NCBI RefSeq assembly: GCF_963676685.1
Contig: NC_092353.1
Location: forward strand, 20,243,307 to 20,307,306
Direction: 5' to 3'
Source of the DNA: Mytilus edulis
Taxonomy: Eukaryota
DNA: 64,000 nucleotides
Below are positions 385 through 50,077 of this stretch, in pieces (within the stretch, counting starts at the first letter, position 1; the number at the start of each line of letters is the position of its first letter). A model generated the notes under the pieces. It saw nothing but the letters and a program-made list of their open reading frames with translations. It was not told where the DNA came from and did not search any database. The translations under genes and the position numbers were made by a program.

Positions 385-596
385 TCATCCATTTGCACAT
401 TGTAGCATTCTTTTTACATTGCAATCCATTTTCAATTTACCTCTGAGTTTTTCAAATTCAATTGCTGATACCATGTTAAGTGTATAGCCTTTCAGATCAT
501 TCTTTGCAGAAATACATTTTCTATGTTGTTTATTCTCAGCCTGATATTTGTATGCTTCATTGACCATTTGATCTATTTCTTTTGACCCCAAACGAC
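385..596 (-). CDS. HSP70-family C-terminal lid exon, second copy ([24 protein letters not shown]…NMVSAIEFEKLRGKLKMDCNVKRML…). 3' boundary uncertain.
   Basis: Acceptor tatttag|GTCGTTTGGGG at 597, identical to the junction at 2755. Homology to HSP70 KEEIERMVxEAEKYKAEDE…NM…EDEKLxGKI. The ORF ends ~385 with a possible donor gtgagt. Confidence 0.55.
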
Positions 597-604
597 CTAA
601 ATAA

Positions 605-2056
605 CAAAGTTAAAATTGAACCAGATGCACCGCAGGGCGCAGCTTTATACGACCGCAGAGGTCGAACCCTGAACAGTTGGGGCAAGTATGGACGCAACAT
701 TTAAGCTTGATACAGCTCTGAATTTGGATTGTGATTAAATAGTTGACACAAAATAGGTTTCTGACACAGAATGAATGTGGTCTAAGAATTTAAACTTAAA
801 AACTTGGGCATTTACCTATTATGGTCCAATATCCAAAATCTAAATACATGGTTAGATTCAGCATATCATAGAACCCCAAGAATTCAATTTTTGATGAAAT
901 CAAATAATGTTCAATTTTAGACCCTTTAGACCTCAATGTGGATCAATTTGATAACTGGGCCCAAATATTAAAAATCTAAATACATGGTTAGATTCAGCAT
1001 ATTGAAGAACCCCATATATTCCATTTTTGTTGAAATCAAACAAAGTTTAATTTTTGACCCTTTGGACCTAAATGTAGACTAATTTGGAAACAGGACAATA
1101 CTGTGCAATTAAATATTTCTTGCTATTGCCCAAAACTGTGCAATTGAAAATTTTTTGCTATTGCGCAATATTGTGCAATTAGATATTTCTTGCTATTGCA
1201 CAGTACTGTGCAATTGAAGATTTCTTGCTATTGCACAATACTGTGCAATTGAAGATTTCTTGCTATTGGGCAATACTGTGCAATTGAAAACTTCTTGCTA
1301 TTGCACAATACTGTGCAATTGAAGATTTCTTGCTATTGCGGAATACTGTGCAATTGAAAATTTCTTGCTATTGCACAATACTTAATATAATAATTTTGGA
1401 CCCCAATTTGGACCAACTTGAAAACTGGGCCCATAATCAAAAATCTAAATACATGTTTAGATTCAGCATAATTATCAAAGAACCCAAAGAATTCAATTTT
1501 TGTTAAAATCAAGCTAAGTTTAATTTTGGACCCTTTGGACCTTAGTGTAGACCAATTTGAAAACAGGACCCAAAATTAAGAATCTGAATACACAGTTACA
1601 TTTGGCATATCAAAGAACCCCAATAATTCATTTTTTGATGAAATCAAACAAAGTTTAATTTTGGACCCTTTTGGCCCCTAATTCCTAAACTGTTGGGACC
1701 CAAACTCCCAAAATCAATCCCAACCTTCCTTTTGTGGTCATAGACCTAATGTTAAAATTTCATAGATTTCTGTTTACTTGTACTAAAGTTATTGTGCTAA
1801 AACCAAGAAAAAAATGCTTATTTGGGCCCTTTTTGGCCCCTTTTTCCTAAACTGTTGGGACCAAAACACCCAAAATGAATCACAACCTTCCTTTTATGGT
1901 CATTTACCTTGTGTTTAAATTTCATAGATTTCTATTTACTTTTACTAAAGTTAGAGTGCAAAAACCAAATGTCTTCGGACTACGACGACGACAACGCCAA
2001 CCTGATACCAATATATGACCAAATTTTTTTCAATTTTTGCAGTCGTATAAAAAAAA
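605..2056. mobile_element. Composite non-autonomous element, family A. Head …CCAGATGCACCGCAGGGCGCAGCTTTATACGACCGCAGAGGTCGAACCCTGAAC…; internal ~100-bp and 40-bp minisatellites; 3' end with (GACGAC)n and terminal hairpin …TTTGCAGTCGTATAAAAAAAA. Inserted in HSP70 intron.
   Basis: The empty-site sequence is preserved in the paralogous intron copy at 2760-2800 (gttaataaaaaaatcaaaaaatca|acagtattttt), so this is a precise insertion without TSD between A and T. Same head/tail also at 26975/29258, 29935/31590 and 45733/47805. Confidence 0.65.
1100..1385. repeat. ~40-bp minisatellite (ACTGTGCAATTGAAGATTTCTTGCTATTGCACAAT)n inside the family A element. Related array at 30480-30660.
   Basis: Direct inspection. 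Confidence 0.8.
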
Positions 2057-2220
2057 TCAGCAGTTATTTTCATTGCAATATATTATGAATTTTCTCATTA
2101 TACTTTTGTTATTATGATAGAGTTAAAATTGATATATTAGGATTATATAATGACAAAAAGATTAAGAACTGTATGACAATTTTTGGCATTTGTGGTCAAC
2201 TAATAATTAAAAATCCTTAC

Positions 2221-2754
2221 CTTTGTCATTGGTAATGGTAAGGCTATTCCTCTTTCCAGTAATCATATCTTCTGCAGAAATTGTCAAAATACCATTGGCA
2301 TCAATATCAAAGGTGACAACAATCTGAGGTACTCCTTTTGGTGCAGCAGGTATTCCTGTCAGAACAAATGTTCCAAGAGAGTTATTGTTCTTGGCCAAAG
2401 TTCTCTCCCCTTCATAAACCTGAATAAACACATTGATCTGGTAGTCCTCTGAAGTAGTGAACGTCTGGCTCTTTCTAGAAGGAACTGTTGTATTACGTTT
2501 GATAACAGGTGTCATATGACCACAGACTGTTTCTATACCAAGAGATATTGGAGTGACATCTATCAAAAGTAGGTTTTGTATTTTTTCGATTCTGTAAACT
2601 TCATGTTTTTCAAAATCAATTGCTGATACCATATTAAGTGTATAGCCTTTCAAAGCATTCTTTGCAGAAATACATTTTCCCTGTTGTTCATCCTCAGCCT
2701 TGAATTTCTCTGCTTCATTGACCATTTTATTTATTTCTTTTGACCCCAAACGAC
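2221..2754 (-). CDS. Chimeric HSP70 exon: truncated C-terminal lid exon ([23 protein letters not shown]…[12 protein letters not shown]) fused in frame to a second copy of the SBD exon ([24 protein letters not shown]…ITNDKG). Possible pseudogene or internal duplication.
   Basis: Continuous 534-nt ORF. Acceptor ttctttag|GTCGTTTGG at 2755 gives G-RLGSKEI, joining the phase-1 donor of the upstream exon. Donor AAAG|gtaagg at 2220. The fusion point [11 protein letters not shown] lacks the sequence that follows in the other copies. Confidence 0.55.
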
Positions 2755-2964
2755 CTAAAGAACAAAGTTAATAAAAAAATCAAAAAATCAACAGTATTTT
2801 TCATTGCAATATATTTCCAATTTCCTCACTATTAAAAATTCTTTTGTTATTATGATAAAGTTATAATTGATATTTTAGGATTATATAATGACAAAAAGAT
2901 GAAGAACTGCAAAACAAACAGTAATGCTGTATTTTTTGGCATTTGTAGTCAACTAATCATTAAC

Positions 2965-3235
2965 AAGAATGTGTCCATAGTACACGGATGCCCCACTCGC
3001 ACTATCATTTTCAATGTTCAGTGGACCTTGAAATTGTGGTCACAAATCTAATTTGGCATTAAAAGTAGAAAGATACCATTGTACATAGGAAACATGTGTA
3101 CAAAGTTTCAAGTTGATTGGACGTCAACTTGACCAAACTCTTTAACCTGAAGTGGGACAGACAGACGAATGAATGCACAGACCAGAAAACATAATGCCCC
3201 TACTATTGTAGGTGGGGCATAAAAATCCCTACCTT
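2965..3235. mobile_element. SINE/MITE-like element with 3' hairpin (…CATAATGCCCC-TACTATTGTAGGT-GGGGCATAAAA) inserted in HSP70 intron. Homologous copy at 53975-54245; related hairpin-ended elements at 42395-42560 and 58620-59225.
   Basis: Absent from the paralogous intron copy (2057-2220). ~80% identical to 53975-54245. Confidence 0.6.
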
Positions 3236-3634
3236 TGTCATTGGTAATGGTAAGGCTATTCCTCTTTCCAGTAAGTGTATCTTCTGCAGAAATTGTCAAA
3301 ATACCATTGGCATCAATATCAAAGGTGACAACAATCTGAGGTACCCCTTTCGGTGCAGCAGGTATTCCAGTCAGAACAAATTTTCCCAGAGAGTTATTGT
3401 TCTTGGTCAAAGTTCTCTCCCCTTCATAAACCTGAATTAACACACTGATCTGGTAGTCCTCTGAAGTAGTGAACGTCTGACTCTTTCTAGTAGGAACTGT
3501 TGTATTACGTTTGATAACAGGTGTCATGTGACAATTGCCTGTTTCTATACCAAGCGACAGTGGTGTGACATCTAACAATAGTAAGTCTTGTATTTTTTCT
3601 CTTCTGTAAACTGGTGACCTGGCTGCCTGTTCAG
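3233..3634 (-). CDS. HSP70-family exon encoding the substrate-binding domain, copy 1 (…[15 protein letters not shown]…[17 protein letters not shown]…ITNDKG)
   Basis: Translation matches the HSP70 SBD beta-sandwich almost residue for residue. Acceptor tattatag|CTGAACAGG at 3635; donor GACAAAG|gtaggg at 3232, phase 1. Confidence 0.75.
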
Positions 3635-4306
3635 CTATAATATACAACATAAAATGAGAGGACTTAATTTTACAATCAATACTACTGGTTACAAAATTAA
3701 AAGTGATCATTAAAATAAAGTATTGTTGTTGTTGTTGGTATAACATTTTGCTTTAGGCCAATTGAAATGATATTTGTGGGTCCTGTTACATAAGATAAAA
3801 AAATTAGGGCATTTTTTTTGTATTGAATACATAGAGTACATATTGTCATTTTAATAGCACTCATTCAAATATACCCCCAATCTTTAGGGTAGCTTCCCAA
3901 AACAAAGAAATGGTAGAGAAAGCATAATAGAAGATATCTTTTTCTATGGCCTCACAAAAGGAAGATTTTTGTTTTGGTTTTCTTTTTTGTGAGTTTTGTA
4001 GACTGTTATCTGTCTTTAGGTCCTTTTTGTTTTTGCCATGGTGTCATCAGTTTTGAAATCAATTGCAATTGGTATAATCTACCTCTCATTTGAAACTAAG
4101 CAAATAAATTTTGAATTACAACAAATTCTTTCTTTAAGGGCCTAAACTTCTGAATGGAAAACAATTGCAATTTGATCACAACAGTTTGTTCAAGGTGATG
4201 GCTGATTGAAAATTCTAAAGTTTCCTTCTGTACTCTCATATATACTAAGACATAAAATTTTCCACATACAAATGCATGTATCATTCAATGGTAAAAACAG
4301 CTTCCA

Positions 4307-4987
4307 CTAATTTAAACACACAATGAACTGACCATTTGAAAAATTTCCAATATTTGGAATACTTAAAATATATATACTTAATTTACTCATACCATTTCTT
4401 TTTGTTTTTCTTTCAACGAAAGCAGCTCTTCTTTCATTTCTTATCTTTTCTCTCTCTCTTTCATTTTCTTCTAGTTTCTGTTTATTTTCTAGTTCCAATT
4501 GCCTTATTTCTTCTCTCCACCTGGATTCATTAGCCTGTCTTCTTCTTTCACACTGTTGTCTCTCCAACCGTTCTTGATCTAACGTTCTCCTTTTCTTTTC
4601 AGAACGCTTTTCATCTTCCCTTCCTCTGTCTTCCTTAGTACTGTGATCAATAATTTGTTTTTGTTCCTCTTGCCTTATTTCTTCTCTCCATCTGGCTTCA
4701 TCATCCTGCCTTTTTCTTTCACACCTCTGCTCCTTCAACCCTTCTTTATTTAATGTTCTCTTTTTCTTTTCATCATCCCTTCCTCTGTCTTCCTTGGTAC
4801 TGTGATAAATCATTCTTTTTTGTTCCTCTTGCCTTCTTTCTTCCTCCTTTATATTTTTTCTATATCTCTGCTCTTCATCAGATCCAAATGAAGGAGGTGA
4901 AAAGGATGAGAAATTTCTATCTTTATTCCTATCTGTTTCCGTATCAATTCTCCCATTACTAGTAGTGCTTACTTTGTAGGATTTCAC
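4307..4987 (-). CDS. Hypothetical highly charged (Glu/Arg/Lys/Gln-rich) protein ORF with two ~55-aa internal tandem repeats (…EEQKRMIYHSTKEDRGRDDEKKKRTLNKEGLKEQRCERKRQDDEARWREEIRQ… ×2). Exon may end at donor AGAAATG|gtatgag ~4400.
   Basis: 681-nt ORF with clear internal protein-level repeat. No family recognised. Low complexity. Confidence 0.3.
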   Translation of the reverse strand: MKSYKVSTTSNGRIDTETDRNKDRNFSSFSPPSFGSDEEQRYRKNIKEEERRQEEQKRMIYHSTKEDRGRDDEKKKRTLNKEGLKEQRCERKRQDDEARWREEIRQEEQKQIIDHSTKEDRGREDEKRSEKKRRTLDQERLERQQCERRRQANESRWREEIRQLELENKQKLEENEREREKIRNERRAAFVERKTKRNGMSKLSIYILSIPNIGNFSNGQFIVCLN

Positions 4988-5269
4988 AGCAGCCTGGACA
5001 GATTCTATCCCTATATTCTCTCCTCTGAAAATTTAATCATCAGATGAGAAAAGGCATATAAACAAGCTTTTATTTGTAACTTTATAGACACTGACTGTTC
5101 AAGAGCTGAAAATATTGTAAAGAAACACATCTATTGACATAACTGTCAAAGACTTAAAATAAGTTTTGTATCACCCAATCTATGGCACTATTTCATATAT
5201 TATGGGTCAAGTGCATTGCATACATTGGCCTTCTTAGTATTTTGAAAGAAGCAGCATATAAAGGGGATC

Positions 5270-5515
5270 TCATTGGGGGGTTCCGATCCCGGATCCCGCT
5301 TACTGTTTTGTCAGATTCCCGTATCCCGCTTACTGTTTTGTCAGATTCCCGTATCCCGCTTACACTATGTACGTAAGCAATTCTCATTTTTTTGTCATTT
5401 CCCAGGTCCCGCAAAACCTCATTTCCCGTTTTCACGCCACAATAATTTGACTTTCACGTGTCACGCTTACAAAAAATGGGCAATCCCGCGTCAGGCTTAG
5501 ACCCCAATGAGACCC
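5270..5515. mobile_element. SINE-like interspersed repeat (GGGGGGTTCCGATCCCGGATCCCGC… with B-box-like GGTTCCGATCC). Second copy 34962-35200 in PARP4 intron.
   Basis: ~85% identity between the two copies over ~240 bp. Confidence 0.5.
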
Positions 5516-8500
5516 ACTATAAATATATTGTTTTATTTTTTTCATTACAAATGATATCAGATACACTTTAAATATAAAAATAATAAATTCCTGCATATTT
5601 TTTCCAAAATTAAAATGACTCATTTAACTTTTTTTTCCATGCAAGGTCTGTTAAGCTTTAGGAGAACTTTTAAAAGAAATATCAATCTACATCAACTTAC
5701 TGTTTTACACTGTCTCTAATGACTGAAATATGCTTGTTGATACTGTAGCTTCCTCTTTGCACTGTTGATATAAGTGTATGGTATAAACAATGTAACGTGA
5801 CGGTACCCAAATTGCACCTATTTTGACAGTTTTTTCACCTACTTTTTTTTATGATAAAGACAAAAATGTCCATTCTGTTTTTATTTTGTAGCCGTATCCT
5901 TCTCTAATATATAGGTATACCAATTTGATTTATAATCCATATGGAATTATACAAAAATTGGTCTAAACTGACCTCCAAACCATCAATTATTCTGAAATGA
6001 GGAGTACCCAAATTGCATCCATGCTTAAATTCGCATCGTCAAAAGTCAAATAACAGAGCTTTAGTTTAATTTCTTCAAATATTTTGAACAATTGGATATT
6101 AGTCCATGCTTACTCGTCATTTTTTTTTAAATGGATACTTGTAACATATTGTATTTGATCATTTTAAAAAGATGACGTTTTGATGTTTCAGTACATTTCG
6201 CTTTTTCAGTAAACACTTCATCTATTGATAAATACTGTGAACGTTTTGTGCATATCTAAATATTTTAACCTATGTTGAAAGATGTGCATAGTATCAAATC
6301 ATAATCAAAGCACCAAAGGGTGCTATAGGCAGTTAATCAAAAACCCAAAGGCAAACTTGGCCACATTCAGATGAATAGTGTAAAGAATTAGTCAAAATAT
6401 TTATCTCAGGCATTGTTCTCAGCTATTTCTAAAGTATCAAATAATGCTTGTACAGTAATGTTTATGTTATGCAATCCTACCACTTTCAAAAGTTATTTCC
6501 AATTCATATTTATAAAGATTCAATGTTTGAGATTATACACATACACTGTCCTATTATAGGGGAGAGTTTTGTGCCAGTTAAGATGTTTAAGCCGCCACAT
6601 TCTGTATGTACCTGTCCATAGTGAGGACCCACGAATGCGGTGATTGTTGCTGTATATCATATTTATTTTTCATAATTGTTTTGTACATTTTTTTTAAATT
6701 TTATTAATTTCTTGTGTATATTTCTGATTTTAGTATGATGTCCAAGTTATTGTAAATGCTCTTTTGTTCCGACGTTGGAAAGTTCCAGGCGGAAAGAACT
6801 AACTAGACAAAAAGTTCTCCAGAACTTATTAACTACATTGTAGTTACTTTGTTCTTCCTCTGGTTTAAAAGTTCCACCTGAACAAGTGACTAGTTGAAAT
6901 AGTTTACATTTTTGTTATCATGGTTATTATGTTAAGGGGCCAGCAAAAGCAATCCTTTGGGTGTAGGAGTTTCTCCCTGCATTAATGATCCATTGGTAAC
7001 CTTCGACTGTTGTCTGCTCTAAGATCTGGTTATTGTCTCTATGACACATTCCCCATTTTCACTGTCTTTTTTTACGTCTCAAATTATAACTGAATTAAAA
7101 TATGTTGATTACAGTTTAAGTGTCTTCCATTACTAATATCATAATAAAAAAACATTTATTTAAACTTTCAATAACTGTAATAGTAAGAATTAAGAAAAAA
7201 CTTGTTTGTAACTTCAACTTGTTGAAAACATATTAAACGTTTCTCGAGTCTCGTTAGTCGACTCGTTACCTTTTTATCGTATCATGCGATTTCTTTTCTT
7301 ATTATTTTTCATGGGGAAATTGTTTACCAGCATAAAGTTGCTGAAGGAACCGCATAGAATTGATTCAATAACACTTAACGAGTGTTTAAATGTGAAAAAT
7401 TATAAAAAGAAACATAAAAAAAGTCGTATTTTTCTGTACTGGAAATGGAAAAGTCCTTGTAAATCAAAAACAATTACGGTGTGATACGCGTCACAGATTC
7501 GGACTTTTAAAATATTTTACAAAATATATGCGACTTTGAAGTTAAATAATTAGAAAACAGTTGTTAAAGTTTACATCACAATATTTATTGAACCACATCG
7601 AGCTTAATCAAAGCACGTGTAGCATTATGTTACATTGTACACAAAAGCGAAACAATCTTAAAATGACCTTGACATCGACCAATCAGAAAACTACAATAAC
7701 AACAACTTAATTTGACAAGCATGAAGGTGATTTGCTAGAAATCGGAATAATATTAACAAGAAAACAAATGAGCATACATTAAAGATTACTGAATAAAGAT
7801 GATTTAAATAATCTCAATCAGACAAAAAAAACGAATAAAATGATTAATAATAAAGTACCTATGTACAATGTATCATCAGAATTCTCCCAATTTAAAAGGT
7901 ACGTAAATTTCGTCTTCTATGTACTTTGAAATTGCCGCCAACTTATATCAGCTTATTAATAGACTACTGACGTATGTTATACGTATCGATGACAAACAAT
8001 ATTCCTACGACTTTTGCCATCTGGGAAATGTAAACGACTCATCTTTATAGATTTTCAGCGATCAAATATTTCATACAATTGTTCTTTGACATCTTTGCCC
8101 ACAGCACAGGGGGTAATAAACTATAAAAGGATTTCTATCGAGCACTACTTCCTATGTGCAACTTCAAAACTTTTGGGAAAATCGACGACCATTTAACGTT
8201 TTTATTGTAATATTTTTTATATTCAAAAATAAAAAGTATGAAAAAAGTGCCCAATTAGTTATAAATAACATGATAGCCAGCCAGATAATAAAAGTGGCAC
8301 ATATTTCAGCATTTATTGGGTAGAACATAAATCTAGGGTGCTCGCATAAAGCAGCTTAACTGCTTAAAAATACAAATTGTGTAGTCTCTAGGAAATCTTG
8401 TAAGATGTCCGCTTCTATTTTTGCTAAATATGTGCAATTTGGGTACTCGGTGCAATTTGGGTACCGTTACGTTATACCTCGTGTATATCCCAGGAAAATT

Positions 8501-8911
8501 CAAATAATGGAGGAGATTTCTGTCAACGGAAGGGATTGTGCAGAAAGAATTCAGACAAGTAAAGCTATCATGCAGGAGATAATCTGTCAAGGAAAGCTCA
8601 TGTGCAAAAATATTTGGTCAAGGAAAGCTCTTGTGCAGAAAGATAGCACACACAAGGACAAGGCTTCATTTTAATGACCTTAACTACTCATGACGGACTT
8701 GAATGGTCAATTGAACAAAAAGCCTTTATATCTGTATGATTCTGATATAAATGTATCTTTCACAGCAACTTAGTGTACTTTATAACTTTACATGCCAGCC
8801 ACTACAGTGAAATATATGTTTCTATGAATTAAGGTGAATGACAAACTTCTCTGCATTTAATCAAATATAATTCATCTTTCATTTTTGTTTACCCATAATT
8901 ATTTATATGAT

Positions 8912-9118
8912 ACTGTAAATTCAGAAATTATTGCAATGTTTTTATTATTGCGAAAAATGCGGCAGGGTCATATCGCAATAGCTTAAACTCGCATTTTGAA
9001 ATTTTGTATATGAATTAACAAATTTGTCTCAATATTGCATTAATTTTAAAATTGCATTTTATTCTAAAGTGGCAAAATCGCAATAACAAATGCATGCAAT
9101 AGTTTCTGAATTTACAGT
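8912..9118. mobile_element. MITE (~200 bp) with ~23-bp TIRs ACTGTAAATTCAGAAATTATTGC / GCAATAATTTCTGAATTTACAGT. Other copies 26020-26225, 36341-36522, 48212-48412.
   Basis: TIRs are exact reverse complements. Four copies with conserved ends and divergent interiors. Confidence 0.65.
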
Positions 9119-9665
9119 TGTCATTGTGGTGAGAATTTAAAGGTGTACTTTAGAATTGTTAGCAAATTAGTAAAATATAATTATTATTTATATAGTGTGT
9201 ATTTGTAACAACTAAAATTTTAAAAACACCAAGCAATAATGGCCAACATTCGCTATCTCCATTACTTGTCAAAAGTCAAATAACAATCTGCATAGAGAGT
9301 TGCAAACTTTCTAAAAGATGGAGGTACGAGTTAATTGACAAAATTTGTGCAAATCACAAACATAATTGTAAAAACAGAAGATACTGAAAAGTTGTTGTAG
9401 GTGGTCACATGGACAAATAATATCACAAGTTTGTATTAATCTAAATAAAGTAACAAAACAAGGGAACAGTTGTAAGACTGTTGTTCATCAGTGACAACAA
9501 AAGGAGTTGTTGTATTATTATTGTATGGGAATGATTGATTCTTAGCTTAAGTAAGATGCTATCATTGAAATTGTGTATACTTTTCTGAAAAAGACAAAAA
9601 TTCAATACAATGAATGAAGCAATAAAATATTTGATATGTTAAGCATGTAAAAGACTGATTTTTAC

Positions 9666-9750
9666 CTCTTCTTTCAGTAGTAGTGTCAAAAGCTTTCAGT
9701 TTTGAACTTCTTGTCATATTCATTGGTGGAAACATATCATTTTCTTCTTC
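9666..9750 (-). CDS. Candidate exon (EEENDMFPPMNMTRSSKLKAFDTTTERR). Phase-0 compatible with the SNAP-25-like exon at 13098. Assignment uncertain.
   Basis: Clean acceptor aatgttacag|GAAGAAG and donor AAGAAGAG|gtaaaaat. Open frame. No homology recognised. Confidence 0.25.
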
Positions 9751-10717
9751 CTGTAACATTTAATGTAAAAATTATTATTATATCAAAGTTAATTCCTTAT
9801 ATAATGCAACTTTTGGTATGTAATTGGTGAGGATAGGTCAAAGGGTAGATTTTTACTCTTTGGACAGGTTGTTGTCTCTTTGACATAATACACATTTCCA
9901 TTCTCAATTTTATTCGACTAAAGTTATTGAAAAATCTGAAAACTGGTTGAAAGTATGACTGAATCCAGGGGCTCAAATTGAATCCACTGATAGGTATTTA
10001 AAAGTACAAAAATTTCGAAAAAAGAAGCTCAAGATATCTTTAATATAGAACATAATGTTCACTGTAATGAAATTTAAAAAAAAACATTGTTTTGTTCTTT
10101 TCGTGATATGATGATCCTTCAGTAAGACTGACAAGTTTTGATTCTTCAGATTGAGTTGTATTCTCCAATGACTTGTTTCAATCATATTACTTTCAAACCA
10201 ATAAACAAGCTATTATCTCTTTACATGAACCTTTCAGAAAATGTCAGCAAATCAAAAGTCAGTGACTTTCACATCTGTTTTTCCACAAACATAAGCACAA
10301 CAAGTTTAACAAGATTGCTATATCCTAGCAAAATATCCCCTGTGATGTATTGATGTTTAGGGGGCCTTTGTAGCTTCCTGTTCCGTGTGAACAAGGCTCC
10401 ATGTTGAAGACTGTACCTTGACCTATAATGATTTACTTTTATAAAATGTGACTTGAATAGAGAGTTGTCTCATTGGCAATCATACCACATCTTCCTATAT
10501 CTATTAAATTGTGTTCCATACTGTGTCTATGTGAGACCATAGTCATAATATGGTTAAAGTCCTTTAACTCCCCTAATAAAGGGATCATCAAATGGGATCA
10601 ATTAAGGGTCAACTTTGTTAGGAAACTCAAGTCTAAAGTTAAATGGAATTGATTCCTCCTGCCTAATTCTTATATGCTTAGCTCTGATTATACTGTATAA
10701 ACACTGGGGGTTCTTTA

Positions 10718-22435: not shown

Positions 22436-24413
22436 ACTAATCGGTGTGGCTTTTGTTTTTGTTTTGTTGCAGGCCGTATAGGTTGCACTTTGTAAATCAC
22501 GTGTGATTTGCAAGTCACGCCTCTTTTGGGGAGAAATTGAATGTGCATAAAATACTGCTACTGTTTACATAGTTGTTGCCACGGATGCAAAGTAATTTTT
22601 TTTTAATTAAGACTTGATTGGAGAATTAAATGGATATAAATAAAAATGTCTATTTATTTAACTTATTTTTCAGGAGGACTGGAAGACATTTGGGTGTTGA
22701 GTCAAATTTAATGGAAAAATTCAGTGCGAACCTGCAATGTTTATAAATGGAGGGCAGTAAAACTTGAAAATATGCCGCACAGCTATATGTTTTTATTAGT
22801 GCAAAAAAAAGTAGTGCATGTCTCCTTTCCAGGGAAATATAACATTCTCCTCAAAACTTCCTGAATGAAGAGTGACTGCATATGCAATTTAGGCAGTTCC
22901 TATGGAAAACTGCATTGCTGGTTTTACACAAGTGCAACCTATAGTGACCTTTACTTCATTTATCTTCATCATTTGTCCTGATTATAATGTTTTCACATTG
23001 TGTCATGTCGGGGCCTTTTGAATTATTAAAACTGTTATACTCAGCTGTGTTGTCTACATGAATTGTAGGACTTATGCACATTTTTTTTTTATCAGATTTA
23101 ACTTTTTTGTTTTCAAACGTCTCTTTTCTAAAAGTAATTTACTAGAATACTTTTTGTCTAGCCTTCGATTTTAGTCGACAAAGCGAGACATAGCGATCCT
23201 ACATGCCATCGTCCACAAATATTCACTCTGTTGTTAAAAGTTTTTGAAATTTTAATAACTTTTTAAACTAACCTGGAATTGTACCAAAGCTTGTGTATGA
23301 TCAATGGATAGTATCTAGAAGGAAATTTTGTTACATTTTGTACCTGTTTTCTGTATTTTACTAATAATTTGACTTAGTTTTTCTTCCAGTTAACATTACA
23401 TACAGTCTGCAATTAAAGATTTAAAAAAAAATATTAGATTCATAAACTATTCTGGAATTTTACCAAACTTGGAAAAAGCTTCTTACAATCTAAAGATATA
23501 GTATCGAAAGAAATATTTTTATTTTAATTTTTTTCTGCTTTTTTGTTGAGTCTGCTATTAATAGCAAAAGTAGGCGAGACACTGGGTTCCGCGGAGCCCT
23601 TACGAATTTTTCTATCCAAGTATCATAACAATTCATAAAGGTTTGGCAAATATTTTATACTATATTACGGATAACCACTATATTACGGATAACCAGCTTT
23701 ATAAATTTTGATGATTAATATCATTGCTTTCGAAAAAAAATCTTGGCTATACCACTGAACTTGACAGCGTAGTTGTGACCGGCGGGAAAGTTATCATGAC
23801 GTTGTTGCGATTAAAACTTATTTTAACGTAGTTTAGCGCCTTATTGGCAAACGTCCCGTTTGCCATTAAAAATCAATGTTTATTGCTTTTATTGAAAAAA
23901 CAAGCACATGGACCCCCAGTTTTTTCTTTTGCAATCAATTAAGTAATGTTAAAAGAACGCTTCGCCAAAATTTAAAGGAAAAATCAACGATCAAATTTTT
24001 TCTGCACCTCTGAATAGAATCACAAATGTTGTCAATTTCTTTATTTCACTAATACATGTAGTAATATAAATTCAGAAAATAACAATTTAGTTTAACCTTA
24101 AATTTGTTATACATTATGTTGATGCCATAGATCTAGGGATCATTTCACAAAAAACCTGGTTAAGTTATGACTGTTCGTTCAAAAGTATTGTTACTTTCCG
24201 TAAAAGTCCTTATTTATGGAATTTCTGGGTTTTTACCTCAAAGATGCAAATTTCAAACCAAATTATCTGAAAAAGTAAGTCATGAAGGTATATTTTTCTT
24301 TGCATATTTCGAAAGTACACATTAAAATTGACCTTGTACCAAACTTTCAAGAAAAAATCAACGAGGAATCTCTACTGTATCGTATGCCCTTAATGCATTT
24401 ATTGGATTTTTAC

Positions 24414-24591
24414 CTGTGCTGCTCTGTCATGTTTAAGGCTTTATTAGCCCCTCCCATACAAATCAAAACTTCTTTGTTAGTAGTTGCATGCTCCAATGCC
24501 TCTCGCTGAAATTCCATAGTTGATAGTGTTCCATCTACTTGCTGTAACTGTCGTTCATACTTCTTTTTCCTCTTTAAAGCTTGCAGAGCAA
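24414..24591 (-). CDS. CHMP4: CHMP4/Snf7 exon (VALQALKRKKKYERQLQQVDGTLSTMEFQREALEHATTNKEVL…)
   Basis: Near-identical to CHMP4B AALQALKRKKRYEKQLAQIDGTLSTIEFQREALENANTNTEVL. Acceptor cttatcaatag|TTGCTC. Donor CACAG|gtaaaaatcc. Phases consistent (1 to 2). Confidence 0.85.
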
Positions 24592-25240
24592 CTATTGATA
24601 AGCACAAACTCACTATAAATTTCCATATTAATGCACACAAAGATGAAGATTTAAATGGAATATTTATTCAATCATATTGCCATTAAATATAATAAACTCA
24701 CCATACCAGGATTAAAATTGTGTACACTGATCATGTGCTTGGTCTACAAAAGACTCATGAGTGACACTTGAATCAAAACAGGCTCCAAGGAGCAATCAAT
24801 GATCATCAAAAAACTATATGCAGACAGTTTTTATCTAGTGATTTCTAGGGGCTTGCATTAAAATAGCCATTATTTTAATTGAAGGTTTCTGTTTTGTAGT
24901 CCTATTGGATCTTTAAAGTAAAAGCAGTGCACACTTTTTACTGCAGTGCTACATACAAAATTTCTTTGGTCAATGTTTTCAAATACAGATGAAACTTCAA
25001 AAAGCAGCATATCTACCAATTACGTTTATATCTAACAATTTAAATATTCAACATACCGGTATTAGGCAAAACAGTAAATCTAAATGCTTATCAGTACTAA
25101 ATGGTAGATTGATTTAATTTATCAATGGAAGGTAAAATTAAATATTGCTTTTTATAAACATTGGTTGTAGCTGAATTAACTACAATTGTTTAAAAAAAAA
25201 GAAGATAACTCCAATTTTAAAGATTACTTGCAACAATTAC

Positions 25241-25429
25241 CTCTTTTGTTTGTGGCAGCATTTTCTTTTGCCACCTTCAGTTCCTTGTCCATCTTCTTTT
25301 CAAGGTAATCTAGTTTTTTCCCTAACATGTCTTCTTTTTTCTTTAAGTTTTCCACAGTTTCTTGTGCTGCAGGAGTTTTAAAACCACCTTTGTTCTTTGA
25401 TTGGCTTGATTTGGATCTTGTGTCTTGTT
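25241..25429 (-). CDS. CHMP4: CHMP4/Snf7 (ESCRT-III) exon (…KGGFKTPAAQETVENLKKKEDMLGKKLDYLEKKMDKELKVAKENAATNKR). No in-frame ATG, so an upstream exon is required.
   Basis: Matches CHMP4B PTPQEAIQRLRDTEEMLSKKQEFLEKKIEQELTAAKKHGTKNKR. Acceptor aatttcag|AACAAG at 25430, phase 1. Donor AAAAGAG|gtaattg. Confidence 0.75.
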
Positions 25430-25598: not shown

Positions 25599-25906
25599 TT
25601 AATTACCTGAAGGCTGAACTGGTTCACTTTTTTCCTCGTCCATCATCCTCTTTACAAAGGCAAAATAATTAATCTGTTGGTCAGTACTGTCCACATCAGC
25701 TTCTCTCATCATTTCTTCAATCTCCTCGTCTGTTAATTTCTCCCCTAAGTTTGTCATCACGTGTCTTAAATCTGACATGCTGATAGATCCTTCACCATCT
25801 TTGTCAAATACTTTGAATGCTTCCATTATTTCTTCTTCTGCATCAGTATCTTTCATCTTATGTTGCATCAATGTGTAAAATCCTGGAAAGTCAACTGTAC
25901 CTCTAT
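25599..25906 (-). CDS. Calmodulin-like EF-hand protein exon, EF hands 3-4, with stop codon (…[102 protein letters not shown])
   Basis: Matches calmodulin [70 protein letters not shown]. Acceptor attttag|ATAGAGG. TAA stop at 25599-25601. A GT donor overlaps the stop codon: TCAG|gtaattaa. Confidence 0.75.
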
Positions 25907-26480: not shown

Positions 26481-26668
26481 TGAAAACGATACATGAAAAT
26501 TTTGGAGCATAAAACAAGTTTTTATTTCAGTTGAGTACAGTTTATACCACAGCACAGATAAAAATTTAAATCTTAAAATTTGCTTGCTTTTAGACATTAT
26601 TTATATATTTCTATCTATATCTTATAGATTATTTTTCATTGAAACAAATTATGCTTGGAATAGGTTAC

Positions 26669-26812: not shown

Positions 26813-26974
26813 CTGAAAATATACATATTAATAAATATCAAAATCAAAAATGTCTATATTTTTGTCAAATCAGAACCAAAAGAGGATCATTAGAAGAGGA
26901 CCTCCATTCATCATATCTTGACAAGTTTGATTAAAATCTGCCAGACCAAAAGAAGAAGATGATAATGTTGAATA

Positions 26975-29258
26975 AAATGCTCTGCAGGGCGCAGCTAGAT
27001 ACGACCGCAGAGGTTGAACTCTGAACAGTTGGAGCAAGTATGGACACAATATTCAAGCTGGATACAGCTCTGAATTTGGATTGTGATTAAATATTTGACA
27101 CAGCATAGGTTTCTGACACAGAATGAATGTGGTTTAATGAACTTAAACTAGAGGCTCTAAAGAGCCTGTGTCGCTCACCTTGGTCTATGTGAATATTAAA
27201 CAATGTACACAGATGGATTCATGACAAAATTGTGTTTTGGTGATGGTGATGTGTTTGTAGAGCCTACTTTACTAAACATTCTTGCTGCTTACAATTATCT
27301 CTATCTATAACAGTACTTTCTGTGGAAAATGTTATTGAAAATCTTCAAATTTTAAGAAAATTGTTAAAAATTGACTATGAAGGGCAATAACTCCTTAGGG
27401 GGTCAATTGACTATTTTGGTCATACTGACTTATTTTTAGTTCCTACTTTGCTGTACATTATTGCTGTTTACAGTTTATCTCTATCTATAATAATATTCAA
27501 GATAATAACCAAAAACAGCAAAATTTCCTTAAAATTACCATTTCAGGGGCAGTAACCCAACAACCGATTATCCGATTCATCAGAAAATTCCAGGGCAGAT
27601 AGATCGTGACCTGATCAACAATTTTCCTTCCTGTCAGATTTGCTCTAAATGCTTTGGCTTTTGAGTTATAAGCCAAAAACTTCATTTTACCCCTATGTTC
27701 TATTTTTAGCCATGACAGCCATCTTGGTTGGTTGGGCGGGTCACCGGACACATTTTTTAAATTGGATACCCCAATGATGATTATGGCTAAGTTTGGTTAA
27801 ATTTGGCCCAGTAGTTTCAGAGGAGAAGATTTTTCTAAAAGATTACTAAGATTTACGAAAAATGGTTAAAAATTTACTATACAGGGCAATAACTCCTAAA
27901 GTAGTCAACTGACCATTTTGGTCATGTTGACTTATTTGTAGATCTTACTTTGCTGAACATTATTGCTGTTTACAGTTTATCTCTATCTATAATAATATTC
28001 AAGATAATAACCAAAAACAGCAAAATTTCCTTAAAATTACCATTTCAGGGGCAGCAACCCAACAACGAAATGTCCGATTCATCCGAAAATTTCAGGGCAG
28101 ATAGATCTTGACCTGATGAACAATAATACCCCTGTCAGATTTGCTCTAAATGCTTTGGTTTTTGAGTTATAAGCCAAAAACTGCATTTTACCCCTATGTT
28201 CTATTTTTAGCCATGGCGGCCATTTTGGTTGGTTTGCCGGGTCACTGGACACATTTTTTAAACTAGATACCCCAATGATGATTGTGGCCAAGTTTGGTTA
28301 AATTTGGCCCAGTAGTTTCAGAGGAGAAGATTTTTGTAAAAGTTAACGCAGGACGACGACGGACGACGAACGACGACGACGGACGCCGGACGCCAAGGGA
28401 TGAGAAAAGCTCACTTGGCCTTTCTGCCAGGTGAGCTAAAAAATTTAATTTACTTATGATGTTCCAAGATCCAAAATCTACATGGCCATGGATTGATTCA
28501 GCATATCAAAGAATCACAAGAATTCATTTTTTTATGAAATCAAACAATGTTTAATTTTGGACCCTTTTGACCTCAATGGCGAAATCTAAGGATTTTCTTA
28601 TGCCAAGCATAGATTACCTTAGCCAATTTTGGCACAACTTTTTGGAATTTTGAATCCTCAATCCTCTTCAACTATGTATTTGTTTGGCTTTATATCTTTT
28701 TTAATATGAGCGTCATTGATGAGTCTTATGCAAACAAAAGGTGTGTCTGGTGTACTTAATTATAATCCTGGTACCTTTAATTTGATAACTATTGACCTAA
28801 ATGTGGACCAATTTGATAACAGGGCCCAAAAATCAGAAAATCAAAATACATGGTTAGATTTAGCATATCAAAAAACCTGTTACATTCAATTTTTGTTGAA
28901 ATCAAACAAAGTTAAATTTTGGACCCCAATTTTGACCAACTTGAAAACTAGGCCCATAATCAAAAATCTAAATACATGTCTAGATTAAATAGCATATCAA
29001 AGAACCCCAAGAATTCAATTTTTGTGAAAATCAAACTAAGTTTAATTTTGGACCCTTTGGACCTTAATGTAGACCAATTTCAATCCCAACCTCCCTTTTG
29101 TGGTTTCAAACCTTCTTTTTAAATTTCATAGAGATTCATTTTCTTAAACTAAAGTTATTGTCTGGAAACTTAGTGTCTTTGGATGATGCTGACGACTACA
29201 ACATGATACCAATATATGACCGCAAAATATTTTTGCAGTCGTATAAAAACCTAGGACC
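26975..29258. mobile_element. Family A composite element enclosing a family C satellite module (27146-28444) and ~100-bp repeat module; tail TTTTTGCAGTCGTATAAAAACC
   Basis: Head at 26975-27140 is ~90% identical to 620-790. Tail at 29225-29258 has the same hairpin motif. Confidence 0.6.
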
Positions 29259-29479
29259 ACGACGACAAACACTCAAGCAATGAAGATCATTCATAAGGGA
29301 TTTTGAGCCAGAAGAGAATTTTTTTGGTTATTATCATAAGCCTCAAAACATACCTCTGCCTTCATTACATTAACTAACCATATTTTTTCATAATGATCTT
29401 CAGTTCTTTGGTATTTTTAAAACTTGACTTTTTTTTGTCTTAATCTTAATCTCTTATAGAACAAATGCCTCTATTTTAC

Positions 29480-29602
29480 CTGAAGTAATAAGATCTTCCC
29501 CATCCACTGCTCCTCTTTGAACTCCTTTTACAAATCGTCCACTACTGAGACTTTCATCCTCACTAGTGCATTCTTCCTCACTGCTACTACTATAGACACT
29601 TC
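29480..29602 (-). CDS. PARP4: PARP4 candidate exon 26 (GSVYSSSSEEECTSEDESLSSGRFVKGVQRGAVDGEDLITS). Last PARP4 exon identified; 3' end of gene not found.
   Basis: Phase-1 acceptor tatttaag|GAAGTG compatible with exon 25. Donor TTCAG|gtaaaatag. Acidic/Ser-rich like the PARP4 region after SWQGE. No direct homology. Confidence 0.45.
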
Positions 29603-29934
29603 CTTAAATAATAAATTCATAGAGGCTCATAAACTTTCCTTTGAGCACCTTTAATGCATGAAATTATAAAATTGAGGTTGTGAGTTTTGAAATCCTGCTC
29701 GTATTGGTACACTTGACTCCAATCTTGACTAGGATTGTTTTTTTTTCCGAACGAAGGTTAGTGGTTTTCACTGGGCACACCATTAAAAACTGGCCGCTAT
29801 AAAGTGGAGTTAAACACCAACAATGAATCAATCAACTACATACAATAAGAACCAATCTTACCAAGTATGAGAAATTTTATAAAATGGTCTCATAGTAGTT
29901 GCATTCACAGGGTGTTATTGTCATAAGCTTCAAC

Positions 29935-31590
29935 CAGATGCTCCGCAGGACGTAGCTTTATACGACCGCAGAGGTTGAACCCTGAACGGTTGGGGCAAGT
30001 ATGGACACAACATTCAAGCTGGATTCAGCTCTAAATTTGGATTGTGATTAAATAGTTGACACAGCATAGGTTTCTGACACAGAATGAATGTGTTCTAATG
30101 AAGTTAAAATTTTTGTTTTCTCATAGAGCAATTCACTATGCTGTTGAATATTAATCCTCTCAAAAAAATGTTTGAAGAAATTTTCTTTTTTATTTATGAA
30201 ATTTCAAATGAGAAAAATTGAACCCAATTTTTTTAATCACATCCCCCTTTCCCTTATTCCAAAACTAATCTCAATTAAAATTTCTAATGGAGTTTGCAAC
30301 AATAACTACTCATTTAAATACATCATAAAATATTAAGATGTAAAAAAACTGCTTGTTATCACTGAATGGTAAAGATTATTTTAATTTATCAGTTGGTTGT
30401 AAAAAGTGAATATACATTGTATATTGTATATAACAAAGATTTAAGTTGATTCTGGACAAAGAAAGATAACTCCAATTAAAAAAAAATCTTGCTATTGCAC
30501 AATATTTTGCAATTAGATATTTCTTGCTTACTATTCTGGACAAAGAAAGATAACTCTAATTAAAAAAAAATTTGCTATTTCACAATATTGTGCAATTAGA
30601 TATTTCTTGCCATTGCACAATACTGTGCAATTGAAAAGACTTGCTATTGCACAATACTTAATATAATAATTTTAGATCCTGATTTGGACCAACTTGAAAA
30701 CTGGGCCCATAATAAAAAATCTAAGTACATTTTTGGATTCAGCATATCAAAGAACCCCAAGATTTCAATTTTTGTTAAAATCAGACTAAGTTTAATTTTG
30801 GACCCTTTGGACTTTAGTGTAGACCAATTTGAAAACATCACCAAAAATGAAGAATCTACATACACAGTTAGATTTGGTATATCAAAGAACCCCATTTATT
30901 CAATTTTTGATGAAATCAAACAAAGTTTAATTTTGGACCCCGATTTGGACCAACTTGAAAACTGGGCCAATAATCAAGAATCTAAGTACATTTTTAGATT
31001 CAGCATATCAAAGAACCTAACTGATTCATTTTTTGTCAAAATCAAACTAAGTTTAATTTTGGACCCTTTGGACCTTAATGTAGACCAATTTGAAAACGGG
31101 ACCAAAAGTTAAGAATCTACATACACAGTCATGACAGTTAGATTCGGCATATCAAAGAACCCCAATTATTCAATTTTAATGAAATCAAACAAAGTTTAAT
31201 TTTGGACCCTTTGGGCCCCTTATTCTGTTGGGACCAAAACTCCCAAAATCAATACCAACCTTCCTTTTATGGTCATAAACCTTGTGTTTAAATTTCATAG
31301 ATTTCTATTTACTTATACTAACGTTATGGTGCGAAAACCAAGAAAAATGCTTATTTGGGTCCCTTTTTGGCCCCTAATTCCTAAACTGTTGGGACCTAAA
31401 CTCCCAAAATCAATACCAACCTTCCTTTTGTGGTCATAAACCTTGTGTTAAAATTTCATAGATTTCCATTCACTTTTACTAAAGTTAGAGTGCGAAAACT
31501 AAAAGTATTCGGACGACGACGACGACAACGCAGACGACGACGCCAACGTGATAGCAATATACGACGAAAATTTTTTCAAATTTTGCGGTC
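29935..31590. mobile_element. Family A composite element (head 29935-30100; 40-bp minisatellite 30480-30660; ~100-bp repeats 30660-31230; (GACGAC)n plus hairpin tail TATACGACG…GCGGTCGTATAAAAAA at 31500-31590)
   Basis: Head and tail alignment with the other copies. The ORF at 30684..31112 is an artefact of repeat translation. Confidence 0.6.
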
Positions 31591-45462: not shown

Positions 45463-45732
45463 CTGTGTTTGAAGACAAATTATTTATTGTACAGCTAATA
45501 AAGAATTGATTCTAAATAGAAAAAAATTATGTATTACATGCTTAACACTCATTGGACATTGTATTTTCTATTTTAGAATTAGTTAGCAGAAAACTGGATT
45601 GACCGCAAAGAATTACTTTCCTTGCTTAGATTGTTAATAAGTCTTAAATGGTAAATTATTTATGTTCTGAAAAGAAAGGAAAGTTTTTTGGAATGTCTGA
45701 GTATATTGTGATGCTAAAAATCAAATAAAACC

Positions 45733-48596: not shown

Positions 48597-48999
48597 CTGC
48601 AACAAATATTTACATTTGAAGCGGATATATGTTGTAAAGCTCTTAGCATAATTTTAATATTATGTAATGAGCTGTTATAAATACTGTATAATAATGATAA
48701 TAAAAGTAAAAGTTTCTTTCTGTATTTCAAAGTACAGGTTTAATGAGAAATTGGTTTCTCCTTTTTATATTTGTTAACATTTTGTTATCTTATCTAACAT
48801 TATGTCTTTTTCTGTAACTACTGTGGAATAATTATCAATTGTGTGAAATATCAATTTTTATGGATTTCGTTGGTTTAGATAAACTACAATTTCAAATGTT
48901 CAATGAAAGTTAAATTCCTATTATGCAGACTTTACCAAAGCCACAAAATTAACAATTAGCAAAAATACAATTGGTCCTCAATCCATAAAAATTTGTTGA

Positions 49000-49690: not shown

Positions 49691-50077
49691 ATGTTATGTG
49701 TTCTACTCATTATATATAATTAACACGAAAATATCATCTAAGTGGTGAATATTCATGAGCTGGTTTTTTTTTAAATTGTTGCCTTCATGCATATCAAAAA
49801 CTTCTTTTATGTACTGTTGTCTATGGAAAGTAGTCCGAATTTAGTGTAATCTACATTTTCACGAAGCTAGTACACATTTGTGATAAGAGTACAGCAAAAG
49901 TCCCCTTTAGTTGCAAGAATTTCTAAACTTGCGGTGTTGAAGACCCATTGGTGGCCTTGGGCTGTTTTCTGCTCTTTGTTTGGGTTGTTGTCTCTTTGAC
50001 TAATTCCCCATTTACATTCTCAATTTTATTACATGCCTTTAAGAAAAACGCAAATTGATATTCTATTCTATTCTTAC

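Follow-up and report, generated by a model that had tools for sequence, protein, structure and literature searches.

A tandemly duplicated, in-frame HSP70 substrate-binding fragment in Mytilus edulis, possibly the relic of an Hsc70-type gene

Introduction

Bivalve HSP70 families expand by tandem duplication, and the expansions seen in oysters are mainly of the HSPA12 type, not of the Hsc70 type (PMC11268181). With the cytosolic Hsc70/HSPA8-type genes of mytilid mussels, of which Mytilus californianus Hsc71 (P0103; gene in L004) is an example, the locus described below has in common the borders and phases of exon 5 and of the last exon. The non-processed pseudogenes and relics of bivalve HSP70 families are, like the locus described below, DNA-level partial copies that have kept their introns, are truncated at both ends, show relaxed constraint and have received transposable element (TE) insertions.

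Isolated HSP70 substrate-binding domains (SBDs) bind peptides without ATP. The SBDs of DnaK (1dkx/1dkz), HSPA1A (4po2) and Hsc70 (7hsc), with which each of the two units of our locus aligns across the beta-sandwich and helices A/B, are laboratory truncations, unlike the natural locus. To our knowledge, there is no natural HSP70 that lacks the nucleotide-binding domain (NBD) and carries a double SBD, and the literature, searched for HSP70s that carry two such binding domains, offered nothing relevant. The top "double-SBD" proteins in the databases (P0001 and P0122-P0126) were considered as relatives and set aside, all of them carrying NBD sequence in an unrelated architecture; most of the multi-SBD database models that were inspected resemble chimeric models or mis-assemblies, or else fused tandem genes.

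The locus reported here lies on the minus strand of a 64,000-nucleotide stretch of Mytilus edulis DNA ("the window"). A preliminary description of the window had recognized an HSP70-family 3' fragment in which the SBD exon and the start of the lid exon are duplicated in tandem and in frame, and this is borne out by the exon coordinates, by a match to the Pfam HSP70 family and by self-BLAST. The locus is a piece of an Hsc70-type gene, without head or tail and tandem-duplicated in frame, and we lean toward regarding it as a relic.

Anatomy of the locus

Table 1. Features of the HSP70 locus and its surroundings, in minus-strand order
Feature	Position	Strand	Description
E/R-rich open frame	4393-5024	(-)	phase-1 donor AATG/gtatgagt, compatible with the E1 acceptor
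E1	3233-3634	(-)	splice-flanked exon; interdomain linker and SBD-beta unit 1, (A)...ITNDK (22 protein letters not shown); counterpart, exon 5 of mytilid Hsc71 (about aa 377-509)
Intron 1	2755-3232	(-)	carries the 260-bp repeat; empty site of the 1432-bp element preserved
260-bp interspersed repeat	2961-3220	(-)	in intron 1; TA at both flanks; missing from intron 2
E2 (fusion exon)	2221-2754	(-)	splice-flanked exon, 534 nt = 178 codons, phase 1-1; lid start RLGSKEINK...FEK (2754-2605), filler (2604-2601), SBD-beta unit 2 VYRIEKIQ...ITNDK (2600-2221)
Duplication junction	2601-2604	(-)	4-nt filler ATGA, no microhomology
Intron 2	597-2220	(-)	carries the 1432-bp element
HINE-like Helentron-associated non-autonomous element	617-2048	(-)	1432 bp, wholly within intron 2
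E3	385-596	(-)	splice-flanked exon; unit 2 lid start RLGSKEIDQ...FEKLRGKLKMDCNVKRMLQCANG, then stop TGA (387-385); counterpart, first ~207 nt of the last Hsc71 exon

Three exons make up the locus (Table 1). Read in order, they form one open frame of 381 codons containing two HSP70 substrate-binding units, which upholds the earlier statement that the splice phases and the fusion junction keep the frame. All five splice sites are intact: E1 has the acceptor tatag/CT and the donor AAAG/gtaggg, E2 the acceptor ctttag/GT and the donor AAAG/gtaagg, and E3 the acceptor atttag/GT.

Self-BLAST aligns positions 2208-2600 with 3220-3612 at 92.6% identity and positions 447-613 with 2605-2771 at 90.4%, both without gaps; the introns align at 78%, with gaps. 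The duplicated segment, of 748 bp, begins 22 nt into exon 5, takes in the intron and ends 150 nt into the last exon; its two copies stand head to tail. At the fusion point, the lid sequence ...GAAAAAC (to 2605) is followed by the filler and then by AGTTTAC (from 2600), and it is the filler that restores the reading frame (150 + 4 + 380 = 534 nt). This structure is beyond chance by far. With the insertions removed, introns 1 and 2 align with 171 matches, 20 mismatches and six indel events, and each carries the empty site of the other's insertion; the duplication must therefore have come first and both insertions later, the order that had been proposed from the outset.

The larger of these insertions had been described as a composite element of 1.45 kb, and it is present, at a size of 1432 bp (2048-617). 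Its parts are two subterminal repeats, one 5' and one 3', the latter with a small hairpin behind it, a (GTC)n microsatellite and internal tandem repeats (162, 136 and 35 bp), and it sits in an oligo-T target with no target-site duplication. HINE elements are recognized by subterminal inverted repeats, a left-flank microsatellite, central tandem repeats, a 3' palindrome, a T-rich target and no target-site duplication (PMC7492417), all of which are found in the insert, its 3' hairpin being statistically undistinctive (z=-1.1). Judged on such structural criteria, it resembles Cg_HINE of Crassostrea gigas, a non-autonomous Helentron element of the HINE/DINE-1 type: the subterminal repeats are inverted, the left flank carries a GTC-type microsatellite and the centre satellite-like tandem repeats, a hairpin follows the right repeat at the 3' end, and the oligo-T target shows no target-site duplication. 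It departs from the type in the weakness of its hairpin and in the imperfection of the complementary inner repeat beside the 5' subterminal repeat. The smaller insertion, in intron 1, had been placed at 2965-3235 and called SINE-like; an insertion is indeed present, but it occupies 3220-2961 (260 bp). A SINE would be expected to have a head derived from tRNA, 5S or 7SL with a pol III promoter, and a target-site duplication of variable length; ARAGORN finds no tRNA-like head in this insertion, which is flanked by a TA/TA repeat only and is at most a putative SINE. A second copy, 85% identical, lies at 53963-54134. TE families in the window are shared with M. californianus at 80-91%.

Relationship to mytilid Hsc71

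The translated locus scores 367 bits with the Pfam HSP70 profile (PF00012; cut-off 20.6, E=1.9e-109), in two stretches at profile positions 379-551, and the best solved relatives are the SBDs of human HSPA2, HSPA1A and Hsc70. Three splice sites, namely the acceptor and the donor of exon 5 and the acceptor of the last exon, coincide in position and phase with those of M. californianus Hsc71; at the first of these, tatag/CTGAACAGGCAGCC in the locus matches cag/CTGTACAGGCAGCC in Hsc71, with identical phase. Because exon borders and phases agree in this way, the locus is an Hsc70-type gene with introns that was copied, in part, at the DNA level, and the intron positions and phases that it has in common with a bona fide Hsc70 gene place it in the Hsc70/HSPA8-type lineage.

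Over 175 gapless codons, the locus is 62-68% identical to M. californianus Hsc71 in protein and 72-75% in nucleotide sequence. It keeps the Hsc71 linker DLLLLDV and most SBD core motifs, with a dN of about 0.23-0.25 where true Hsc70s are near zero. Near-invariant Hsc70 residues have changed: AGGV has become GNCH or VCGH, PPAPRG has become PAAPKG and QIEV has become QIVV. The first of these changes falls among the loop/arch residues, as does that of Y to S in TTYSDNQ. Unlike Hsc71, the locus lacks exons 1-4 (the NBD), the distal lid and EEVD, and its SBD-plus-lid unit is doubled; its coverage of Hsc71 is limited to residues about 377-577, with the introns of the units kept.

The NBD had been reported as unrecognizable in the ~6 kb upstream, and this absence now extends to 60 kb. 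Neither a tblastn search of the whole 64 kb with Mytilus Hsc71 (E<=50) nor a search of its 3577 six-frame peptides with a two-sequence HSP70 profile (hmmsearch --max, E<=200) found an NBD. At the other end, the HSP70 profile match stops at position 577 and is followed by a stop codon, so that the C-terminal 77 codons, including EEVD, are missing. Homology to the remainder of that Hsc71 exon is absent from the 447 nt downstream (local alignment score 54, shuffle mean 61). Judged from its sequence, the fragment is thus truncated at the 3' end as well, besides lacking the NBD. Directly after the stop, the +1 frame reads "KWM", reminiscent of KWLD/KWMD, and the idea that the lid continues there past a frameshift was considered and rejected: three residues match and no others, Mytilus Hsc71 has no intron at that point, and the downstream nucleotide alignment falls below the shuffle mean. 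Of the marks of a functional HSP70 chaperone, then, the ATPase domain is absent within the 64 kb, the complete alpha-helical lid and EEVD tail are absent from the fragment, and strong purifying selection is not what a dN/dS of 0.54 between the units, or of 0.26-0.31 against Hsc71, conveys.

Database searches yielded no close relative. The best protein identity among 5.8 billion clusters is 66-69%, an exhaustive HMMER search of 1.84 billion cluster representatives gave no closer match, and metagenome contigs scanned with lineage-specific peptides gave nothing above 68%. Exact look-ups of the window ORFs that span the HSP70 exons (3108-3746 and 2207-2749) found no match; no parent gene, orthologue or product of the locus appeared in the databases searched, and the window holds no second copy of the fragment.

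Relic or expressed gene

An incomplete copy of a parent gene that retains its introns has the make-up of a non-processed pseudogene, and this is what is found here. The status of "rearranged pseudogene", which the preliminary description had offered as one option, is in our judgment the most likely, given truncation at both ends, relaxed constraint, retained introns and no product on record. The source is a divergent, intron-bearing Hsc70-type gene, and the fragment represents its exon 5 (linker plus SBD-beta) together with the first ~207 nt of its last exon (lid helices A/B). The 748-bp segment was duplicated head to tail and the copies joined non-homologously with the filler, the frame being kept at the junction by a one-in-three chance; the outcome is a symmetric phase 1-1 fusion exon within a frame that reads SBD, short lid, SBD, short lid. 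Later, a Helentron-type non-autonomous element entered intron 2 and the 260-bp repeat intron 1. The gapless, stop-free divergence from Hsc71 (dN/dS 0.26-0.31) presumably arose within a functional paralogue, of which the fragment would be a relic, whether through partial copying or as the leftover of a rearrangement. The fragment may now be drifting (dN/dS about 0.5), probably without a functional chaperone product. Unlike the relics of bivalve HSP70 families mentioned above, it has a frame that is still fully open over 381 codons and an internal in-frame duplication that yields a new symmetric exon. The frame is also better kept than simple decay predicts, a counterweight to decay.

Between the units, dN/dS is 0.54 overall, which is not significantly below 1 (about p=0.05-0.1, from substitution counts); taken separately, the SBD gives 0.42 and the lid 0.93. 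The differences are distributed 17/8/18 over the three codon positions. When polarised by an outgroup, unit 2 shows four synonymous and 14 non-synonymous changes, a neutral ratio; unit 1 shows seven and eight, for a neutral expectation of about 1 to 3.5, and a branch dN/dS of about 0.33. The final ~110 nt of the SBD exon differ between the units at three positions, and GC3 is 0.30-0.32 in a window whose GC is 0.32. Not one indel is found in 527 aligned exon nucleotides, against the six events in ~200 nt of intervening intron; such an outcome has a probability of about 2e-7 if exons and introns gain indels at equal rates, and of about 0.02 if exons are given a fourfold lower rate. The lack of stops in the exons has a probability of about 0.15-0.25, given 43 substitutions. 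The frame-disrupting mutations of a pseudogene are not seen, and the exons align without indels both between the units and with Hsc71. Constraint on the units is relaxed, to judge by the dN/dS of 0.54, yet full neutrality since the duplication is unlikely in view of exons free of stops and indels against six intron indels. As to a functional chaperone with a duplicated domain, the evidence from selection is mixed.

Much of this record can also be read in favor of an expressed NBD-less or chimeric gene, which we hold to be unlikely, though the best placed of the alternatives to a relic. E1, E2 and E3 would be spliced to encode two tandem peptide-binding beta-sandwiches, from a transcript that would start in the E/R-rich exon (5024-4393) or just 5' of E1, and the product might work without ATP, either as a putative holdase or as a decoy that draws off the clients and co-chaperones of Hsc70; skipping of the symmetric E2 would give a putative single-SBD isoform. 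The long open frame and intact splice sites speak for such a gene, as do the lack of exon indels, the dN/dS values overall and on the unit 1 branch, and the manner of divergence from Hsc71. An in-frame ATG at 3653-3651, 16 nt upstream of E1, or else the upstream open frame, would permit NBD-less translation, and an AATAAA lies at 122-117, 3' of the E3 stop; but both ATG and AATAAA are common at 32% GC. Also against expression are the missing product, the neutral ratio of unit 2, the lack of significance of the overall dN/dS, and substrate-binding-loop residues that are altered, and altered differently in the two units.

The E/R-rich frame is itself two-sided. It is free of stops where the other frames contain 26 and 14, it was open in 0/5000 shuffles and its donor fits the E1 acceptor in phase; such compatibility is, however, a one-in-three chance, and comparison with the related contig L001 gives a dN/dS of 1.4 and no conserved start. 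A third partial copy of exon 5 opening this exon (SVQAAVKSYK, compared with AVQAAILSGDK) was tried and dismissed as chance, with a Smith-Waterman score of 23 against 20-21 for random window peptides. In its fullest form, a shade more doubtful still, the locus would be a young, lineage-specific, ATPase-less gene with two tandem HSP70 peptide-binding domains, possibly including the E/R-rich exon, selected to remain in frame and either serving as an ATP-independent holdase or competing with Hsc70 for its clients, with E2 skipping to produce one- and two-domain isoforms.

Less probable origins

It is very improbable that the fragment simply forms the 3' portion of an HSP70 gene that is complete, with NBD exons more than 60 kb upstream, beyond the window, or split off by mis-assembly or inversion. 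The E1 acceptor is intact, at the position and phase of Hsc71 exon 5, and long mussel introns are possible, the Hsc71 gene in L004 spanning 13 kb with a 7.6-kb intron. Same-strand Snf7/CHMP4-like exons, whose only hits are Logan and ENA contigs at 95%, and EF-hand exons nevertheless intervene at 24-26 kb, no trace of an NBD is seen in the 64 kb even at E<=200, the 3' end is truncated as well, and a full-length relative above 69% identity is absent from the databases.

Capture and dispersal of the fragment by a Helitron or Helentron, which had been raised in the form of mobilization by a flanking element, seems just as improbable. Helentron-type elements are abundant in the window, and truncation at both ends is typical of captured fragments. 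The subterminal-repeat motif pairs, however, bracket 617-2048 only and never the fragment, with none between 2050 and the nearest motif outside the element, at 26542, so that within the window the fragment does not lie between the termini of one element. As the element is inside the fragment and not the fragment inside the element, capture is unsupported; the element is, moreover, younger than the duplication, and neither HSP70 sequence in other element copies of the window nor a second fragment copy is found there.

Least likely of all is an assembly artefact, a false tandem duplication from collapsed or alternating haplotypes: mussel genomes are highly heterozygous, and the window and a related contig show 3.5-5% divergence, but the units are 8-10% apart, with six intron indels, two different private TE insertions, and a junction inside exons with a unique 4-nt filler.

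Implications

If the locus is a relic, the likely case, it would be what the turnover of HSP70 genes ordinarily leaves behind in a mussel genome rich in TEs. It offers a clean case of a non-homologous tandem duplication making a symmetric in-frame exon, and it allows two TE insertions to be placed in time with respect to this event. For annotators it holds a caution, namely that an SBD-only open frame should not be called "HSP70". Should it prove to be expressed, its product would be a naturally occurring HSP70 derivative in which the substrate-binding domain is doubled and the ATPase is missing. Since no described natural example is known to us, chaperone biologists would find this moderately interesting.

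Structure and parentage of the fragment

The locus is well established as an orphan Hsc70 fragment made up of exon 5 and lid sequence, in which 748 bp were duplicated in tandem and in frame before two transposable elements inserted. Three minus-strand exon-like blocks, E1, E2 and E3, carry canonical splice signals and, when spliced, give a single open frame of 381 codons, encoding in order a linker with the β-subdomain of the substrate-binding domain (SBD), the start of the lid, a second linker remnant with SBD-β, and a second lid start. The product matches the Pfam HSP70 profile in two stretches (E=1.9e-109; profile positions 379-551), and its closest solved structures are the SBDs of human HSPA2, HSPA1A and Hsc70. 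In self-comparison, 2208-2600 aligns with 3220-3612 at 92.6% and 447-613 with 2605-2771 at 90.4%, both without gaps, while the intervening introns of the two units are only 78% identical, and gapped. The preliminary description, an HSP70-family fragment with an in-frame tandem duplication of the SBD exon, is borne out by the exon structure, the Pfam match, the self-comparison and the open frame.

Coordinates of features in the window (a slash marks a splice junction)
Feature	Position	Strand	Details
E1 exon	3634-3233	minus	acceptor tatag/CT, donor AAAG/gtaggg
E2 exon	2754-2221	minus	acceptor ctttag/GT, donor AAAG/gtaagg
E3 exon	596-385	minus	acceptor atttag/GT; ends TGA at 387-385
HINE-like element, intron 2	2048-617	minus	1432 bp
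Second insert, intron 1	3220-2961	minus	260 bp
E/R-rich open frame	5024-4393	minus	757 nt upstream of E1
2.7-kb insertion	5794-8473		terminal inverted repeats about 24-27 nt (GTAACG..GGTACCCAAATTGCACC)
Snf7/CHMP4-like exons and calmodulin-like EF-hand exon	24410-24640, 25224-25355, 25599-25871	minus
HINE-like element and satellite-like repeat clusters	26969-31594, 45729-47773		paired subterminal motifs 26997/29234, 29958/31584, and 45755
Long tandem array	48956-49710	minus	open in two phases (PQYSITQ..., LNTQLL...)
199-aa ORF	58988-59587	minus	weak BRCT match PF16589, E=3.5e-5, under gathering score

By tblastn, the Hsc71 gene of Mytilus californianus (locus L004, protein P0103) comprises six coding blocks, one spanning about aa 374-511 and the final one aa 509-654. 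The acceptor of E1 coincides in base and phase with that of Hsc71 exon 5 (Hsc71 cag/CTGTACAGGCAGCC, window tatag/CTGAACAGGCAGCC), its 3' end falls on the exon 5 donor, GACAAAG/GT, and the first base of both E2 and E3 is also that of the last Hsc71 exon (ag/GTCGTTTG). Such identical exon boundaries mark the fragment, on sequence comparison, as a DNA-level, intron-keeping copy of an Hsc70/HSPA8-type gene.

The absence of a nucleotide-binding domain (NBD), claimed earlier for the ~6 kb upstream (3700-10000), holds across 60 kb: tblastn with Hsc71 at E<=50 returned chance matches only, and a profile search of 3577 six-frame peptides with all filters off gave nothing at E<0.5 besides E1, E2 and E3. 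At 24-26 kb, exons of other same-strand genes (Snf7/CHMP4-like, EF-hand) separate the fragment from more distant upstream sequence. At the 3' end, HSP70 homology stops at profile position 577, followed by a stop codon, and no trace of the other 77 codons of the last Hsc71 exon, EEVD included, could be picked up in the 447 nt up to the window end (alignment score 54 vs a shuffle mean of 61). Only parent residues about 377-577 are therefore represented, twice.

The tandem duplication

The repeat unit starts at AGTTTAC (3612), 22 nt into exon 5, passes through the intron and ends at GAAAAAC (2605), 150 nt into the last exon; it now measures 1008 bp, or 748 bp once the later 260-bp insert is taken out. 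Between the unit ends lies ATGA (2604-2601), with no microhomology on either flank. This 4-nt filler restores the reading frame, the fusion exon E2 summing to 150 + 4 + 380 = 534 nt, symmetric and of phase 1-1. The junction itself is read directly from the sequence and bears the mark of a non-homologous tandem duplication; as to mechanism class, we infer end joining or template switching.

Over their final ~110 nt (2221-2332 and 3233-3344), the duplicated SBD exons are about 2% divergent, with just 3 adjacent positions changed, the remainder of these copies and the adjacent intron being ~10% different. Gene conversion over a short tract could explain this, as could local constraint, for example from a splicing enhancer.

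Evidence for and against selection on the two units

The evidence for selection is mixed. On the side of decay, dN/dS between units 1 and 2 is 0.42 in the SBD, 0.93 in the lid and 0.54 overall (14.5 synonymous and 28.5 non-synonymous differences), the overall value being not clearly lower than 1 (p about 0.05-0.1, calculated from the counts), and by codon position the differences number 17/8/18. Unit 2, polarised with Hsc71, has 4 synonymous and 14 non-synonymous changes, a neutral ratio; GC3 (0.30-0.32) is near the overall GC of the window; and near-invariant Hsc70 residues are altered in both units, differently in each. Against simple decay stand the absence of exon indels between units in 527 aligned nt, as compared with six in ~200 nt of intron (the chance of none is about 2e-7 if rates are equal and 0.02 if exons take up indels four times less readily), the lack of stops in the exons (P about 0.15-0.25), the uniformly intact splice sites, and the polarised counts for unit 1 (7 synonymous, 8 non-synonymous). 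The units also align to Hsc71 without gaps, with dS about 0.85 and dN/dS 0.26-0.31, a divergence that neutral change cannot have produced.

Possible routes to a translated product

An expressed protein with two SBDs and no ATPase domain, which the open frame would permit, is an unlikely but live minority possibility. Translation might begin at an in-frame ATG 16 nt ahead of E1 or in the upstream E/R-rich frame, which has 0 stops where the alternative frames have 26 and 14, is matched by an open frame in 0/5000 shuffles, and ends in a donor (AATG/gtatgagt) of phase 1, as the E1 acceptor needs. Yet this frame shows a dN/dS of 1.4 against its sole related sequence, and it has neither a conserved start nor known homologues. 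A product of the locus is absent from all databases searched: it was not found among 5.8 billion protein clusters (best 66-69%), among 1.84 billion cluster representatives, or in metagenome contigs scanned with lineage-specific peptides, and exact look-ups of window ORFs 3108-3746 and 2207-2749, which take in HSP70 exons, gave no match. Every database protein that matches in two SBDs also carries an NBD, and the majority resemble fusions of tandem genes or chimeric assemblies.

One of these, P0126, is a 738-aa prediction from another organism. Alongside an HSP70 NBD and one SBD it contains a second SBD that has degenerated, and its C-terminal region is TIR-like; this gene model is an unrelated case of a duplicated SBD combined with shuffled domains. 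The E/R-rich frame runs to about 210 codons, holds an internal 53-codon repeat and is an orphan that may be an exon of a fast-evolving disordered protein; its only relative is a Logan genomic contig (L001, SRR29152238), with 75% amino acid identity and one repeat fewer.

Insertions in the introns

The composite element described in intron 2 is present, at 1432 bp rather than 1.45 kb. It features a subterminal inverted repeat (2051-2029 vs 666-644), a (GTC)n microsatellite close to its 5' end, tandem repeats inside it (162, 136 and 35 bp), a small, weak hairpin beyond the 3' repeat (z=-1.1), and an oligo-T target without target-site duplication, the kinds of feature by which Helentron-associated non-autonomous elements (HINEs) are defined in the Pacific oyster (PMC7492417). 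The insert in intron 1, previously called SINE-like and placed at 2965-3235, is likewise real, though its coordinates are revised here and no tRNA-like head was found in it; a second copy lies at 53963-54134. Intron 1 keeps the empty site of the 1432-bp element, and the 260-bp repeat is absent from intron 2, so both insertions are younger than the duplication, as had been proposed.

The earlier suggestion that an element captured or mobilised the HSP70 fragment is unsupported. The window has 10 occurrences of the subterminal motif TTATACGACYGCA (1.5 expected), in pairs that bracket elements alone, with none between 2050 and 26542; the other element copies (27-31.6 kb, 45.7-47.8 kb) hold no HSP70 sequence; and the insertions postdate the duplication. 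Retrocopy origin is ruled out by the introns retained at Hsc71 positions.

Other features of the window

Window repeat families, those of the two HINE-like clusters, are 80-91% identical to repeats occupying an Hsc71 intron in M. californianus (L004 5655-7464), a likeness that would place the window in a mytilid-like mussel. A further intronic stretch of this locus (L004 7613-8029) is 77% identical to window 58820-59225, and the 199-aa ORF thus partly overlaps a dispersed repeat. The 48956-49710 array is a coding-looking repeat and no sign of a gene.

Related contigs are L001, at 86-88%, and L002 (ENA), at 95-96.5%. Its terminal inverted repeats and absence from L001 identify the 2.7-kb insertion as that of a DNA transposon; an insert of ~260 bp (5260-5519), within which a 30-bp tandem repeat occupies 5287-5363, is missing from L001 too. 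L002 covers the Snf7/EF-hand region, where the window is ~3.9 kb longer between 20510 and 24390. The same ORF pair is adjacent on Logan contig L003, and no annotated protein closer than 64% was found.

Status and history of the locus

We lean towards a gene relic as the most likely status of the locus, in keeping with the rearranged pseudogene first suggested. In the simplest reading of its history, most of the divergence from Hsc71 would have been gained inside a functional, fast-evolving Hsc70 paralogue, of which the headless fragment of today would be a later relic.
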